Virus record (IMG/VR): IMGVR_UViG_3300029504_000072
Origin: a virus
Taxonomy: Duplodnaviria > Heunggongvirae > Uroviricota > Caudoviricetes
Reading direction: 5' to 3' (one strand)
DNA: 13,090 nt
Positions within the stretch are counted from its first letter, which is position 1, and every line of letters begins with the position of its first letter. Shown piece by piece: positions 90 to 8,906 of the stretch. Made by a program: the position numbers and the translations under genes. Under the pieces are notes generated by a model. It was not told where the DNA came from and did no database searches. It worked only from the letters and a program-made list of their open reading frames with translations.

Positions 90-1184
90 ATGCGTTCAAC
101 TGGTACGACAGATATTCGGGAAGCCCGAGTCATTCGTGACCGGATAATGTATGAGTTTTTCACCATCCGTGATCGACTGAAACCAAAGCCACAGGGAAAT
201 TGTGTTGATCGCGTATTGAAAGAACTACGTCAGGTTGACCAATACGTCACCCAGAATGTGGGGATCGACTTCGCCACGGCTCGCGTGTGTCCTTCTCTTG
301 TCCAACTACGGGATGAATTCATTGTCCAACACAGTGACAGGCGCAAGCTGTCTACTTTGAGCAAGTACATCAAGGCCGTAGAGGTGTTCACGGCACATTT
401 CAGGTGCAAGGATTTCCGCCTGCACGAGATCAACAGAACGATGGTGACTGACTGGCTCGACAACGCAAAACTTGAACGGGCAACACAGACACTGGCAAAT
501 TATTTGGGCTGCTTGTCCCAACTGGTGGCGCTGGCCCAGAACCGCTACCACGATGCGCCAAAAGAGAACGTCTTCACAGCCCATAAGCTGGATGTGCGAC
601 ATGATCACGAGAGTTACGAGCCATTCAGCGGTGATGAACTGGCGCAGGTTGTGGATTTGCTTGATCAGGAGATGAAGGAAGTCGCGTTGGTGGGAATGTA
701 TACCGGGATGCAACTTAATGAAATCTGTTCGCTACAGATCGACAATATCAAAACGGTAGAGGGGGTTTGGTGTTTCGAAGTGACGGAAGGCAAGACGCGC
801 AATGCGGCCCGCCTGGTTCCCATTCATAGCAAGTTACGGACTCTCGTTAAACATCTTATCCAGAACAATCACAGCGGCTTCCTGTTCTACCATGCCAGTA
901 TAACTGAACGAGCAGACGGCAAGCGCTCTACATGGCACACACAGCGATTCACACGGGCTAAACGGAAGGCGCTAGGAGAGAAGGGGACAGAAAGAAAGGT
1001 ATTTCACAGCCTGCGGGGAATGTTTATCAGCCAGCTTGATCACGGTGGTGTCCCAGAAGACAGGATCGCATTGATCGTAGGTCACGAGAGAGGGAAAACT
1101 GAATCATTCCGCACCTATAGCCAAGGTGCCAGTATGAAGGAGTTAGCAACCTATGTTAATTTGGCAACCTACAAGAAAATTTAG
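90..1184 (+). CDS. Phage-type tyrosine integrase (site-specific recombinase)
   Basis: 364-aa ORF; upstream in-frame stop at 60-62. C-terminal box II HSLRGMF (H-x-x-R), then VGHERG...FRTY (His and terminal Tyr nucleophile). Box I region reads TGMQLNE, with Gln where the catalytic Arg normally sits. No clear Shine-Dalgarno before the ATG. Confidence 0.8.
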   Translation: MRSTGTTDIREARVIRDRIMYEFFTIRDRLKPKPQGNCVDRVLKELRQVDQYVTQNVGIDFATARVCPSLVQLRDEFIVQHSDRRKLSTLSKYIKAVEVFTAHFRCKDFRLHEINRTMVTDWLDNAKLERATQTLANYLGCLSQLVALAQNRYHDAPKENVFTAHKLDVRHDHESYEPFSGDELAQVVDLLDQEMKEVALVGMYTGMQLNEICSLQIDNIKTVEGVWCFEVTEGKTRNAARLVPIHSKLRTLVKHLIQNNHSGFLFYHASITERADGKRSTWHTQRFTRAKRKALGEKGTERKVFHSLRGMFISQLDHGGVPEDRIALIVGHERGKTESFRTYSQGASMKELATYVNLATYKKI

Positions 1185-1253
1185 GTGACAAAAAGCAATA
1201 AATAATTACAATTACGTTCAAAAAACCATCCAGGGAAAGTGAGTTAAAAACAA

Positions 1254-1490
1254 GTGATTAAAAAAATTATCATCATCATATTGTTAATTGTAGCGGGTCT
1301 TTGGGGCTATGGGGCAAGTATTGGTTACTCTCAAAACGATAAGGGAGTATCTTTATTCCAAGTTGCTTACACATATAACTCCCTGAATTTTATAAGTCAG
1401 TATGGATATATGTTTTTCATACGACAAAACCATCAATTAGTCGAAAGAGCTAAAGATTTAAATCGTGATTTTGAGCATAATACAAATTAA
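1254..1490 (+). CDS. Hypothetical small membrane protein (78 aa, GTG start)
   Basis: N-terminal hydrophobic helix KKIIIIILLIVAGLWGY; AT-rich; in tandem with the next ORF. Non-ATG start and weak RBS lower confidence. Confidence 0.35.
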   Translation: MIKKIIIIILLIVAGLWGYGASIGYSQNDKGVSLFQVAYTYNSLNFISQYGYMFFIRQNHQLVERAKDLNRDFEHNTN

Positions 1491-1505
1491 CCACTGGAGC
1501 CTTTA

Positions 1506-1778
1506 ATGAAAAAAATTATTTTCGTATCATTAATTTCATTTTCAGCCATTGCTTCATATGCTGATACACCTTACGCAGATGAGAAAGAAATGTCAGAAGA
1601 TGTATCTCTTTTAGCCCAGTCATCTCTATTATATAAGAGTAATGGTGAGAAAAGAATGTATGATAATACAAAGATGCTATGTATTGGCATCCAAGGAAAG
1701 TACGATCTAACAAATAACAGGACTGAAAACATGATCCGATGGATGGGAAAAGTTCAAAGTATCTGCTCTGATTATTAA
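1506..1778 (+). CDS. Hypothetical small secreted protein (90 aa) with Sec-type signal peptide
   Basis: GGAG at 1496-1499, 6 nt before the ATG. N-terminus MKKIIFVSLISFSAIASYA followed by a polar mature part with two Cys. No family recognised. Confidence 0.55.
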   Translation: MKKIIFVSLISFSAIASYADTPYADEKEMSEDVSLLAQSSLLYKSNGEKRMYDNTKMLCIGIQGKYDLTNNRTENMIRWMGKVQSICSDY

Positions 1779-1779
1779 T

Positions 1780-1809
1780 AAAAAAACCGGGCGGTTTTAC
1801 CCGTCCGGT
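1780..1809 (-). terminator. Intrinsic terminator-like hairpin, canonical for minus-strand transcripts
   Basis: 9-bp stem ACCGGGCGG / CCGTCCGGT (one G-U pair) with loop TTTTAC at 1786-1809. The A-run at 1780-1786 becomes a U-tract after the hairpin on the minus strand; on the plus strand the hairpin alone follows the 1506-1778 stop. Confidence 0.45.
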
Positions 1810-1909
1810 CAGATAGCATCTTTCAGTTTTTGCTGCATTGCGTAATGGTGTATAGCGGGTTCGAGGCCGACGCTGGCGACCTTGCTCAGAAATGTTGAGC
1901 GATGCACAC

Positions 1910-1913
1910 CTAA
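1910..1913. repeat. IS5 target-site duplication, left copy (CTAA)
   Basis: CTAA directly abuts the left IS5 terminal inverted repeat and is repeated at 3109-3112; IS5 makes 4-bp duplications at YTAR-like targets. Confidence 0.9.
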
Positions 1914-3108
<1,195 letters not shown>

Positions 3109-3112
3109 CTAA
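3109..3112. repeat. IS5 target-site duplication, right copy (CTAA)
   Basis: CTAA directly after the right IS5 inverted repeat, matching 1910-1913. Confidence 0.9.
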
Positions 3113-3229: not shown

Positions 3230-3754
3230 TTATTGTTTAACCCATAATAGTTCATTGACATTGAATCCCAACTTTTGAGCGGTACGCACATAGTCTGCTT
3301 TTACATTATCTGGAATAGTTTGGGTCCTTGCCAGAATCCATAGGTATTCTCTGTTCGGACCACTGACAAGAGCATACTTATACTCATCATCCAGCTTGAT
3401 TACATTATAGCCACCATAGAAGGGGCCAAAAAACGAAACTTTCAACGCTGCAGTTTTAGTATCTCCAGTAAAGTATGCTTTACCTTCGCTCTCGCTCCAT
3501 TTGTTTTTCGTTGGATCGTATCCACGGTTAAGTACGCGAATCCCTCCGTCGTTCCGTTTTTCATAAGTAGCGCTGACTTGTTCCAGACCACGTTCGAACC
3601 AGTTCTCGAGGCGAGCTATTTCATACCATTTTCCGAGGTAGCGGTTGGCGTCAAAATTTGTAATCGGCTGCACACCTTTAGGTGGTGTCGGGGCCTTACA
3701 TGCTATAAGAGTGAAAGAGAGTGCAATGCCAGTCAACACAGGCCATAACTTCAT
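3230..3754 (-). CDS. blc: Outer-membrane lipoprotein, bacterial lipocalin Blc family (divergent paralog)
   Basis: 174-aa ORF with lipoprotein signal and lipobox (MKLWPVLTGIALSFTLIAC); lipocalin motifs NFDANRYLGKWYEIARL and KVSFFGPFYGGYNVI...YLWILAR; roughly half of positions match E. coli Blc as I recall it. Confidence 0.85.
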   Translation of the reverse strand: MKLWPVLTGIALSFTLIACKAPTPPKGVQPITNFDANRYLGKWYEIARLENWFERGLEQVSATYEKRNDGGIRVLNRGYDPTKNKWSESEGKAYFTGDTKTAALKVSFFGPFYGGYNVIKLDDEYKYALVSGPNREYLWILARTQTIPDNVKADYVRTAQKLGFNVNELLWVKQ

Positions 3755-3946
3755 AATAAATCCTGTACTTTTGATAGTTGAGAGTAAGTATGAAAGATAG
3801 ATGAGTACGACCGATCACTTAAAGAACTTTCCTACTATATTAGGAATAGTCAATAACAGAAAAATTGTCAGTGATGAAGCCAGAAAGGCAATTTAGTCCG
3901 TGCACTACAAAGTTTATGTGTTAATGAATTAGTCAAGGGGGAGGAA

Positions 3947-4906
3947 ATGATAAAAAAACCTGTGATTGGGATCAGCGGTTGTTTGGGCGGTTCTGCTGTT
4001 CGTTTTGATGGTGGTCACAAAAGAGATGACTTTTTAATGGACAAATTAGTGGAATGGGTAACATTCAGACCAGTATGTCCGGAAATGGCTATAGGGCTGC
4101 CAGTTCCGCGTCCTGCTCTACGACTTGTGCGCTCGAAGCAAGGAAATATACGGATGTGTTTCAGCCACGACCAGAATGAGGATGTGACAGAGAGAATGAC
4201 AGAGTTTAGTCGTTCTTATATGGACAAATTAAAGGATGTATCGGGGTTTGTGGTTTGTGCTAAATCTCCCAGCTGTGGCATGGAGCGCGTGCGTGTCTAT
4301 GATGAAAATGGTAATCGAGGTCGTAAAGATGGAGTGGGACTATTTACGAGCACTTTGATGGAAAAGTTTTCCTGGCTACCGGTTGAAGAGGATGGGCGAT
4401 TACATGATCCAGTGCTTCGTGAGAATTTTATTGAAAGAGTTTTTGCTTTGCATGAGCTCAATCATCTTTACAAGGAGAAATTATCAAGAAGAGAGTTATT
4501 AGCTTTTCATAGTCGTTATAAGCTTCAGTTGTTGGCGCATAGCCAGGCAGGCTATAAAGATATGGGACCATTTGTGGCTGCAATACACGAGTGGGCGGAC
4601 CTTGAATCATACTTTGAGGTGTATCGTGATAATCTGATGGCGATTCTCAGAAAACCAGCATCACGTAAAAATCACACGAATGTGCTGATGCATATACAGG
4701 GGTATTTTAGTAATTACTTAAGTACACGCCAGCGTAAAGAGTTGAGCGAGGTTATACTTAACTATCGCTTTGGCACATTGCCTCTTCTTGCGCCGTTGAC
4801 TCTGCTGAAGCATTATCTGGGTGAGTATCCTAATGATTACTTGCTTACACAGAATTACTTCGATCCCTATCCGGAAGAACTGGCTCTAAGACTGATGGTG
4901 AATTAA
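3947..4906 (+). CDS. DUF523/DUF1722 two-domain protein (TudS-like Fe-S domain fused to YbgA-like domain)
   Basis: 319-aa ORF; strong RBS GGGGGAGGAA before the ATG. N-terminal motifs GISGCLGG...VRFDGGHK, VCPE and SPSCG match the Cys-containing DUF523 signature; the C-terminal half resembles YbgA-type DUF1722. Confidence 0.75.
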   Translation: MIKKPVIGISGCLGGSAVRFDGGHKRDDFLMDKLVEWVTFRPVCPEMAIGLPVPRPALRLVRSKQGNIRMCFSHDQNEDVTERMTEFSRSYMDKLKDVSGFVVCAKSPSCGMERVRVYDENGNRGRKDGVGLFTSTLMEKFSWLPVEEDGRLHDPVLRENFIERVFALHELNHLYKEKLSRRELLAFHSRYKLQLLAHSQAGYKDMGPFVAAIHEWADLESYFEVYRDNLMAILRKPASRKNHTNVLMHIQGYFSNYLSTRQRKELSEVILNYRFGTLPLLAPLTLLKHYLGEYPNDYLLTQNYFDPYPEELALRLMVN

Positions 4907-5312
4907 CTGTATGCGATATCATCTGAAAGTGATGAGTTCCTGTATGCAGGATATTTACAATCGTAAAAACTACGCTATGATGCTCATAGTGTCAGTTTTT
5001 ATAAAAATCCTGTTCACGCTAAAGAAAACATTGAGATGCAATTTAATGTTGGTAAACATACCAGCCCCAAACGATTTTATTCAATCTGTTTTTATATGAA
5101 GATATTTCAAGTGAATATTAAGAGTATATAATATTATTATTGCACGCAGCTATTATAATATAACAGATTAGTTTAATGATTTGTTTTTTGTGAGTTAAAC
5201 ACATGGTTTTATAGTTGTGATGCAATGAGATTTTCCTTATTGTTGAACTGGCGAATATTGATTTTCCACCTATACTTACCTGGTGTAACCCCAATGATAT
5301 CAGGTGGATAAT

Positions 5313-6026
5313 ATGCCATACATATGTTCTATCATTTTGGTGTTGAACTCGTTTGGTGTCCGAATTGGTAAAGAAGATATTTTGTTTAAAAAAGGAAATG
5401 CTGTCCTCATTGAATACAATTTAAAAGATCTTTTTTCGTCAAATACAGATCATCTAATGATCGTAGATGTTGAGGAGAAAACAGTTAATGATTTCTTTAA
5501 AAACTACACACTCTCACCTTTTTCTGTAAGAAGGTTTTATCCGTCATACTTGATAGTAGAATGTGAAGATTTTTCATTGTTAAGGAACTTGGTTGCATGC
5601 TTGAATTGTGATAGCAAAACCGTGGATGTAGTTAGAAATCAAATATCACTTGCATGTCTTGCTGTCTTATCTTCAGAGAAAATAGTGCAAAGTTTTTTGT
5701 TCGGAAGTCTTAATAGCTTAGGTTGTAAAGTTAAGGCTATTATTCACTCGGATATCTCAGCGTCATGGAGACTTTGTGATATATCTTCAAGATTATATAT
5801 GAGCGAGAGTTTGTTAAAAAGAAAATTAAAAGACGAAGGATTATCGTTTAGTAAATTAATTCTTGAAGAACGAATGATGATGGCGCAAAGATTATTGATC
5901 TACAGTAACCATACTGTCGGCAAGGTGGCGGGAATATGCGGGTATGACAATGCATCATATTTTGTAAGTGTTTTTAGAGGATATTTTGGTGTGCCTCCGC
6001 ACCAATATTTATCAAGATTTTCTTAG
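5313..6026 (+). CDS. AraC/XylS-family transcriptional regulator, AppY-like
   Basis: C-terminal AraC HTH (LLKRKLKDEGLSFSKLILEERMMMAQRLL...KVAGICGYDNASYFVSVFRGYFGVPPHQY); N-terminus MPYICSIILVL resembles AppY-type regulators. I place the start at ATG 5313 (RBS AGGTGG at 5302-5307) rather than the track's GTG 5304. AT-rich gene and upstream region. Confidence 0.8.
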   Translation: MPYICSIILVLNSFGVRIGKEDILFKKGNAVLIEYNLKDLFSSNTDHLMIVDVEEKTVNDFFKNYTLSPFSVRRFYPSYLIVECEDFSLLRNLVACLNCDSKTVDVVRNQISLACLAVLSSEKIVQSFLFGSLNSLGCKVKAIIHSDISASWRLCDISSRLYMSESLLKRKLKDEGLSFSKLILEERMMMAQRLLIYSNHTVGKVAGICGYDNASYFVSVFRGYFGVPPHQYLSRFS

Positions 6027-8314: not shown

Positions 8315-8391
8315 TTGCTATGGTTGGTTAATCATGCGTTAATGGTGTTCTGGTTTGTTACAAAATTATCTGAAGCAGTCATTGTTATAAT
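8315..8391 (+). promoter_or_regulatory. Candidate promoter region for the cold-shock gene
   Basis: cspA-like -35 TTGCTA (8315-8320) with 17-bp spacer to -10 GTTAAT (8338-8343), preceded by an AT-rich UP-like tract; alternatively an extended -10 TGTTATAAT at 8383-8391. Either gives a long (about 95-145 nt) 5' UTR. Confidence 0.35.
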
Positions 8392-8494
8392 TTTATTATT
8401 TGTACCTCTTGAGATTTCCTTGTTGGTTTTTCTCTCTGATATTTTTTTTCGGACCATTCTGCCCAAGGGCTAACTTCTTCAAAAGGTAATAATG

Positions 8495-8707
8495 ATGTCT
8501 AACAAAATGACTGGTTTAGTGAAATGGTTTAACCCTGAAAAAGGTTTTGGTTTCATCACGCCGAAAGATGGTAGCAAAGATGTGTTTGTCCATTTCTCAG
8601 CTATTCAGAGCAACGATTTCAAAACGTTAACTGAGAATCAGGAAGTAGAATTTGGTATTGAGAACGGACCTAAAGGCCCCGCGGCTGTTCATGTTGTGGC
8701 ACTTTGA
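8495..8707 (+). CDS. cspI: CspA-family cold-shock protein (CspI-like, 70 aa)
   Basis: Cold-shock domain with RNP1/RNP2 motifs ([16 protein letters not shown]); protein [20 protein letters not shown]...; RBS AAGG at 8483-8486. Start taken at the second ATG (8495), not the track's 8492. Synteny with rz, gnsB and terminase fits the Qin cspI context. Confidence 0.9.
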
Positions 8708-8906
8708 GGTAGAAAATATTACAAACCATATTCACTTTAGATGCCCGTGTTGCCATGGTTCTCAGTATAGAACATCATCTTTTGATGTTTCTGACAGGAA
8801 TCCTTTCGGGGCAAAATGTATCTTTTGTAAATCAATGATGATTACATTTGATAATATTTCACAATACTTAAATGTTAGCCGTCTGTCGTTAGATTTAAGA
8901 AAGTGA
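8691..8906 (+). CDS. Hypothetical Zn-ribbon small protein (Ogr/Delta-like Cys spacing), overlaps the cspI 3' end
   Basis: 71-aa ORF from ATG 8691 (17-nt overlap with cspI); four-Cys motif CPCC-x21-CIFC; followed directly by a strong terminator. No good RBS, so possibly translationally coupled or not a gene. Confidence 0.3.

Follow-up and report, generated by a model that had tools for sequence, protein, structure and literature searches.

Two small genes for predicted envelope proteins, members of rare accessory families, beside an IS1-truncated integrase of a satellite-like element

Gene organization and coding status of the locus

The 13,090-nucleotide (nt) stretch of Caudoviricetes DNA analysed here (IMG/VR virus record IMGVR_UViG_3300029504_000072, hereafter the window) carries two tandem small open reading frames (ORFs) of 78 and 90 amino acids (aa), named ORF78 and ORF90, which follow a tyrosine integrase gene (Table 1). 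A first-pass annotation made from the letters alone had described them as small exported or membrane proteins, directly downstream of the integrase, in a position typical of superinfection exclusion or lysogenic conversion factors; its placing and description of the two ORFs were correct. Both are genuine protein-coding genes, and they belong to very rare, undescribed families of a familiar kind, namely the small accessory envelope proteins of mobile elements.

Coding is supported for both genes by substitution patterns and by the persistence of their frames. Compared with a relative of 88% identity, ORF90 has 22-25 synonymous and about 10 non-synonymous differences, which gives a ratio of non-synonymous to synonymous change (dN/dS) of 0.07-0.08, the lowest of the six frames. 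Its frame is open in homologs down to about 23% identity, the weakest of these matches having E-values of 7e-5 and 7e-4. For ORF78 the ratio against a close relative is 0.33-0.42, with few substitutions, and the frame is open in homologs down to about 40% identity. Conservation of the reading frames, on which the first-pass annotation had let its proposal depend, is therefore present in both families. The start codon of ORF78 is GTG in the window and in a related contig, L022, and is supported by a second relative, L023, which has ATG at the same position; a Shine-Dalgarno-like AGTGAG ends 10 nt upstream of it. The good ribosome-binding site reported at first pass for ORF90 is a GGAG. A 155-aa antisense ORF (1516-1983) was rejected as a gene, as it spans the junction with the insertion sequence (IS) IS5 and its constraint is only an echo of the sense frame.

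The region also has signals apparently involved in expression. A sigma-70 promoter-like site with 10 of the 12 consensus positions lies just after the integrase stop codon and neither of its hexamers varies among the window, L022 and L023, although such sites are no commoner in the region than in shuffled sequence and the assignment is a consensus match only. Going by this match and its conservation, the ORF78-ORF90 pair is probably transcribed from this site. The hairpin that had been noted after the ORFs is indeed present, and conserved in L022 and L023, but its T-run is on the minus strand, indicating that it is built as the terminator of a convergent operon downstream, which encodes a helix-turn-helix (HTH) protein and a capsid protein. 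For the two ORFs it would be at best a bidirectional or weak stop. Both ORFs are AT-rich, as had been observed, with a GC content of 0.31-0.33 over positions 1201-1800 compared with 0.48-0.52 within the integrase gene, and a similar disparity (0.33 versus 0.49) is seen at the same place in L022. No Rfam family or tRNA overlaps the ORF78/ORF90 region.

Table 1. Features at the integrase end of the window and the evidence for each (positions in nt)
Feature	Position	Strand	Evidence or remark
IS1 terminal inverted repeat end, truncating the integrase	1-77	unspecified	Sequence ends in ...aagttggcagcatcacc
Truncated tyrosine integrase of a satellite-like island, 364-aa ORF	90-1184	+	Pfam Phage_integrase 2.4e-16; phrog_1 4e-32
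Sigma-70 promoter-like site GTGACA-16-TACAAT	1185-1212	+	Between integrase stop codon and ORF78; consensus match
ORF78, 78 aa, predicted bitopic inner-membrane protein	1254-1490	+	GTG start
GGAG ribosome-binding site of ORF90	1496-1499	+	Sequence reading; 6 nt 5' of ATG
ORF90, 90 aa, predicted Sec-exported periplasmic protein	1506-1778	+	ATG start
GC-rich hairpin, A-run upstream, T-run on minus strand	1786-1809	unspecified	-16.7 kcal/mol, z = -3.2
69-aa HTH gene, 3' remnant, 5' part removed by IS5	1809-1913	-	C-terminus match to ECONIH4
IS5, with insH transposase gene (1982-2962)	1914-3108	+	CTAA at both flanks

The ORF78 protein and its relatives

The N-terminal transmembrane helix that had been attributed to ORF78 is well supported. 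Residues 5-23, preceded by K3 and K4, have a Kyte-Doolittle value, KD(19), of 2.45, and the AlphaFold model (predicted local distance difference test score, pLDDT, 79) consists of one long helix (2-30) followed by three short helices. Given the hydrophobic stretch of about 21 residues and the lack of a consistent -3/-1 cleavage site after it, the N-terminus most probably serves as an N-in signal anchor that is not cleaved, leaving a helical domain of about 50 aa in the periplasm. The conserved core of the family, SQxxxGVSLFQVAxTYxSxNPxSQxGY, lies directly after the membrane helix.

The first-pass annotation had recognized neither sequence, and database searches agree. No Pfam, NCBIfam or PADLOC family was matched above threshold by ORF78 or ORF90, by their distant relatives or by their partner proteins, and no PHROG by any of ten ORF78-family members or by the ORF90 protein of the window. 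In PADLOC-DB v2 there was no match at an E-value of 1 or below for ORF78, ORF90 or the integrase, nor one for the alternative cargo genes and partner proteins described below, while a literature search for the RefSeq protein accessions of the two proteins returned no paper. Weak matches below threshold to the YobH-like family (PF13996) occur in five of the ten ORF78-family members (best E-value 3.8e-4), the ORF78 of the window itself scoring 12.4 bits against a gathering threshold of 27. Members of PF13996 are likewise enterobacterial proteins of about 70-80 aa with an N-terminal hydrophobic helix; however, the matches are confined to the membrane helix and juxtamembrane stretch, and the C-terminal halves do not match. 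Judged from these alignments, the YobH link is a lead and not a membership.

Relatives of ORF78 occur in two further settings. Those with approximately 55% identity are nearly the sole cargo of ColE1/Rop plasmids of 2.3-2.45 kb and of 4.1-kb mobilisable versions of these, found in E. coli, Salmonella, Shigella and Klebsiella (L010:2750-3311; L017, NZ_CP055040.1; L019, CP056398.1). On the plasmids a second gene comes 25 nt after it, whose 99-aa product, unrelated to ORF90, has two cysteines and a signal peptide. In the settings other than prophages, the gene downstream of an ORF78-type gene, 15-25 nt from it, encodes a small exported two-cysteine protein in each case, and these two partners are mutually unrelated. 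By eye the 99-aa partner looked MliC/PliC-like; Pfam and PDB sequence searches with it gave nothing and no such claim is made. E. coli C 236-04A has both an ORF78-type tiny plasmid and the chromosomal ORF78-ORF90 block.

The second setting is that of lambdoid prophages, where relatives of 39-45% identity, which fall into five clusters, invariably come first after the gene for the Q antiterminator, 150-220 bp from it (L042:6001-6237, L045:6001-6246, L046:6001-6258, L050:3501-3737 and L052:3501-3734). The interval between Q and the holin gene is a classic site for morons, and it is there that the stx genes of Stx phages lie. All three of the prophages scanned (L042, L045 and L050) have a strong intrinsic terminator within about 20 nt 3' of the ORF78-type gene. 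In L045 there is a promoter-like site directly after Q, which suggests that the gene may lie within the constitutive pR'-tR' leader, in which case it may be expressed constitutively in lysogens.

The ORF90 protein and its relatives

The N-terminus of ORF90 reads MKK, then IIFVSLISFSAIA, then SYA, with a predicted signal peptidase I cleavage before the following D, so that residues 1-19 form the signal peptide. It has the positive n-region, the h-region of 7-15 residues and the small residues at -3/-1 that are characteristic of Sec-dependent export with processing by signal peptidase I. The hydrophobic segment has a KD(11) of 2.41 but a KD(19) of only 1.41, which argues that it is not a membrane helix. 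The same pattern was read by eye in ten family members, while in some others a membrane anchor replaces the signal peptide. The mature protein has 71 aa, a pI of 4.9 and a conserved C-terminal ICSDY. ORF90 is modelled confidently (pLDDT above 90) as a generic three-helix bundle (helices 26-46, 49-68 and 74-87). The two cysteines noted at first pass, C59 in helix 2 and C87 at the end of helix 3, occur in every one of 18 sequences of the family and probably form a disulfide between these helices.

No fold relative of ORF90 was found in PDB or BFVD, nor for ORF78 a relative among solved structures. The ORF90 family is rare, with 16 representative clusters among 1.84 billion representatives; a search against plasmids gave no match. 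Paralogy of ORF78 and ORF90, considered on account of a shared VSL(F/L) motif, was rejected with an hhalign probability of 3.5%. One ORF90 relative, P0006, with 55% identity, is situated within the nin region in lambdoid prophages, after a 72-aa HTH_73 gene and before the genes for DUF1367, NinG and Q. At this locus (L003:9766-10279) the HTH_73 (PF24718) gene is 16 nt upstream of P0006 and the pair follows an intrinsic terminator, suggesting it to be a separate two-gene moron within the nin region. Another relative, P0011, follows a gene for a 218-aa lipoprotein.

The carrier element and its intact relatives

Although the two ORFs lie physically directly downstream of an integrase, as first described, this gene is itself a remnant. 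Set against relatives of 405 aa it is about 37 residues short at the N-terminus, the alignment beginning at approximately residue 38, and its 364-aa ORF starts directly after the 77 nt of the window start, which form an IS1 terminus. In E. coli ECONIH4 and C9 the same junction is abutted by annotated IS1 family transposase genes. On the other side of the pair, the minus-strand ORF 1809-1928 terminates ...GVHRSTFLSKVASVGLEPAIHHYAMQQKLKDAI and is identical there to the C-terminus of an intact 69-aa HTH gene in ECONIH4, the rest having been removed by IS5; matches of the prophage part of the window to other genomes begin only at 3109, beyond this insertion. The integrase does not come from the adjacent Qin-like prophage. 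It belonged to a small satellite-like element with a capsid gene, was truncated by IS1, and has been severed by IS5 from the rest of that element. With its integrase cut by IS1 and the next gene by IS5, the element in the window is dead.

Among 5,426 complete E. coli genomes, 36 have a 681-bp block containing the pair, with no copy below 99% identity, and its context was inspected in three of the carriers (ECONIH4, strain 81 and C9). In both ECONIH4, where the island is at tRNA-Phe, and strain 81, convergent genes for the 69-aa HTH protein, a major capsid protein and a decoration-like protein come after the ORF pair, and then IS debris, the integrase being cut by IS1 in the former and by a Tn7-like element in the latter. 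In the window the block abuts a prophage. Taken together, these contexts and that in C9 indicate an IS-bounded remnant which has moved to several chromosomal sites. Strain C9 (L002, NZ_CP010129.1) has the arrangement IS1-int'-ORF78-ORF90-IS5 twice, at 10176-13753 and 19351-22602, about 9 kb apart. Both of these copies are followed by the RtT small RNA and ycdU, and represent a segmental duplication that includes the block.

An apparently intact relative of the element is present on L022, a contig of 12.7 kb, and a partial copy on L023, a contig of 4.1 kb. In L022 the genes for a 405-aa integrase, ORF78 and ORF90 are followed on the opposite strand, in order along the contig, by those for an HTH protein, a major head protein (lambda E-like, phrog_29), a head decoration protein (phrog_2680), proteins of 123 and 190 aa, a replication-initiator-like protein of 276 aa, a ribbon-helix-helix (RHH)-like protein of 78 aa and a protein of 159 aa. 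The element is about 7-8 kb in size and satellite-like, with no portal, terminase or tail genes detected. Its family occurs in Enterobacterales (L022:93-6885; L023, L031, L033, L035, L040 and L032), with a remnant in the window spanning 90-1913. Each member encodes an integrase of the DUF6538 type, a replication-initiator-like protein and an HTH protein, together with a major head protein similar to lambda E and a decoration protein that is D-like. A literature search for a description of this type of satellite-like element found nothing fitting.

Between the window and L022, the integrases have 42% identity outside a C-terminus that they share, and the capsids 29%, whereas ORF78 and ORF90 are 86-90% identical, and DNA homology is limited to window positions 1002-1809. 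The cassette is therefore one that is exchanged between elements which have otherwise diverged.

A variable cargo slot beside the integrase

Related integrases were sought with one genome taken per species, and this gave 18 loci in hosts including Citrobacter, Scandinavium, Buttiauxella, Pectobacterium, Biostraticola, Kluyvera, Kosakonia, Enterobacter, Raoultella, Serratia and Yersinia. Several of these loci share the HTH, capsid and decoration genes, and none of the 18 has ORF78 or ORF90 (tblastn at 1e-3). In eight loci where the interval between the integrase and the HTH/capsid genes was examined, it is occupied by unrelated genes, coding for proteins of 166, 87, 202, 255 or 132 aa, or for one of 80-91 aa together with one of about 630 aa. 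The GC content of the interval is 0.33 in two of these eight and near the integrase value in the others, and the alternative genes have no convincing Pfam match. The absence of the pair from all 18 loci and its replacement by unrelated genes in the eight intervals identify the interval as a variable cargo slot beside the integrase.

ORF78 and ORF90 are thus moron-type accessory genes that move horizontally and independently of each other. They are present in L022 and L023 and absent from related elements at the same site, and their base composition differs from that of their flanks, while of the transcription signals expected of a moron the window offers the promoter-like site and the oppositely oriented hairpin described above. 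The accessory location proposed in the first-pass annotation is accordingly upheld by the slot and by the relatives at moron sites, though the integrase concerned is not that of the neighbouring prophage. The two genes are not an obligate pair, as each family is found elsewhere without the other.

Possible functions

Small envelope proteins with a role in exclusion are known from several phages. In prophages of Gram-positive bacteria, lactococcal Sie2009 and the Ltp protein of Streptococcus thermophilus phage TP-J34 are small membrane- or lipid-anchored extracytoplasmic exclusion proteins encoded directly beside the integrase gene, and Ltp is built from small helical domains. These come from a different phylum with a different envelope, and ORF90 has no lipobox. 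A closer parallel in form is found in phage T4, whose Spackle protein (gp61.3) is made as a precursor of 97 aa. Its mature form of 75 aa is a compact bundle of helices in the periplasm that contains one disulfide; it is an inhibitor of the tail lysozyme and works alongside the small membrane protein Imm in superinfection exclusion (PMC7677548). ORF90 similarly has a 90-aa precursor, a mature helical bundle of 71 aa and two invariant cysteines, and adjoins a gene for a small membrane protein. However, a profile search against PDB gave no sequence similarity to Spackle, no sequence or fold homology to its family was detected, and Spackle is described as a flat bundle including short helices α1, α4 and α5 where ORF90 is modelled as a plain three-helix bundle. 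Furthermore, Spackle and Imm belong to a lytic phage, whereas the carriers of ORF78 and ORF90 are temperate elements and plasmids. For ORF78, a comparison is offered by small inner-membrane proteins that temperate phages encode in accessory genes, such as the moron protein gp15 of HK97, which is reported to block DNA entry (Cumby et al. 2012, cited in PMC11436027), and SieA of P22, which has the same effect (PMC10883804). The resemblance is one of kind only, in that ORF78 relatives are at moron sites flanked by terminators. There is no detectable homology, in keeping with the lack of a PHROG match among the ten family members, and the ORF78-type site is directly after Q, unlike the tail or immunity regions in which gp15 and SieA are encoded.

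By analogy with Imm and Spackle, superinfection exclusion by ORF78 and ORF90 is plausible, and our preferred, though tentative, reading is that the two proteins may act at the envelope against incoming phages. From the periplasm or the inner membrane they would make the host refractory to other phages by interfering between tail penetration and DNA entry, each protein being able to work alone and not in an obligate complex. A more elaborate form of this proposal would make them a two-part envelope exclusion module, in which a membrane-anchored periplasmic protein and a soluble disulfide-bonded bundle are cargo of undescribed satellite-like elements and resemble Imm and Spackle in function while being unrelated in sequence; the recurrent pairing of ORF78-type genes with small exported proteins would then reflect a modular design of anchor plus periplasmic effector. 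This fuller version is improbable.

A number of observations weigh against an accessory role in exclusion. The hairpin has no U-run on the strand of ORF78 and ORF90. The E. coli copies, all at least 99% identical, mean that this copy gives no measure of selection. A tblastn search of 50,697 deposited phage genomes with ORF90, P0006 and P0044 found neither family. Lastly, in Photobacterium damselae the ORF90 relative P0007 is a lone gene beside gcvP, and no mobile element is obvious there.

This last case, a chromosomal gene with no mobile genes called nearby, is what would be expected if the proteins were instead conversion factors for host physiology, that is, envelope proteins which tune signalling, stress tolerance or colonisation to the benefit of the carrier cell. 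Many small membrane proteins do modulate host envelope functions. The YobH-like matches would also fit, PF13996 being a chromosomal family, as would the tiny plasmids of which ORF78-type genes are nearly the sole cargo, a distribution consistent with any benefit to the host. Nevertheless, nearly all other contexts are cargo sites of phages, satellites or plasmids, and the YobH likeness is below the gathering threshold and restricted to the helix and juxtamembrane stretch; moreover, YobH has no known phenotype or function. Such a role is considered unlikely.

The build of ORF90 is open to another interpretation. Periplasmic immunity proteins are usually small, acidic, Sec-exported helical proteins with a cysteine pair, which describes ORF90 well, and the ColE1-type plasmids, with genes for a small membrane protein and a small periplasmic one as their main cargo, recall colicin-immunity plasmids. 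The genes could on this account be orphan immunity genes against competitor toxins acting in the periplasm or membrane, such as peptidoglycan hydrolases of the type VI secretion system (T6SS), colicins or toxins of contact-dependent inhibition (CDI), ORF90 neutralising a periplasmic enzyme and ORF78 a membrane-targeting toxin. However, no toxin, T6SS, CDI or colicin gene was seen beside either family in the contexts inspected, and there was no match to an immunity family in Pfam or NCBIfam. This reading is quite unlikely.

The position of ORF78 relatives after Q raises the question of a late-phase or lysis-timing role, in which an ORF78-type protein would be an antiholin-like factor or envelope modulator in the late phase of a helper, through which a satellite manipulates that helper. 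The five clusters of relatives head the late operon and, in the four of the five where the contig extends further downstream, are upstream of the lysis cassette. In addition, T4 RI has an N-terminal membrane helix and a small periplasmic domain, a build which ORF78 resembles. An antiholin should show conserved adjacency to, and co-transcription with, one holin family; instead, the downstream holins come from at least four Pfam families (Phage_holin_3_3, 2_3, 3_1 and holin_8/3_7), making a specific holin partner unlikely. A strong terminator separates the ORF78-type gene from the holin gene, which in L050 is 2.6 kb away, the plasmid and satellite copies have no lysis genes nearby, no holin gene adjoins them or the copy in the window, and ORF90 is never near lysis genes. 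A function in lysis timing is thus highly improbable.

It is also very doubtful that the two are inert passengers in this window, decaying genes of an IS-shuffled remnant that now do nothing, for although the element is truncated on both sides here and similarly degraded in the three carrier genomes inspected, and the intactness of copies at least 99% identical may merely reflect recency, neither frame is disrupted, nor are the promoter-like site and the ribosome-binding site, relatives are under purifying selection, and the block has persisted through several moves by IS elements, among them the duplication in C9.

As it stands, the locus offers two well-supported hypothetical proteins encoded in a dead remnant. 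If either protein does block phage entry, it would add a very small and easily tested exclusion factor at the level of the envelope, common to satellite-like islands, lambdoid prophages and tiny ColE1 plasmids, and would provide a function for the only cargo of widespread 'cryptic' 2.3-kb plasmids. The satellite-like element family and the link to the tiny plasmids are more useful by-products of the analysis than the gene pair, and the variable slot beside the integrase may be a useful place to seek new accessory or defence genes.

Neighbouring prophage segment

Beyond IS5 the window continues with an unrelated Qin-like prophage segment, which has blc-like, ybgA-like and AraC-like genes, genes for a holin, a lysozyme and Rz, csp genes and a gene for a Nu1-like small terminase. 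Positions 3230-6026, directly upstream of an essQ-like holin gene, hold three genes, which encode a blc-like lipocalin lipoprotein (on the minus strand), a ybgA-like DUF523/DUF1722 protein and a regulator of the AraC type. They correspond to the Q-holin moron site of the segment, with the Q gene absent and IS5 at the segment border. In this prophage fragment the blc-ybgA-AraC cargo fills the place upstream of the holin that corresponds to that of the ORF78-type genes in lambdoid prophages. Further along, a full-length match to the Rfam cspA thermoregulator (8337-8753, 112 bits) covers the 5' leader and the start of the prophage cold-shock gene (8492-8707).

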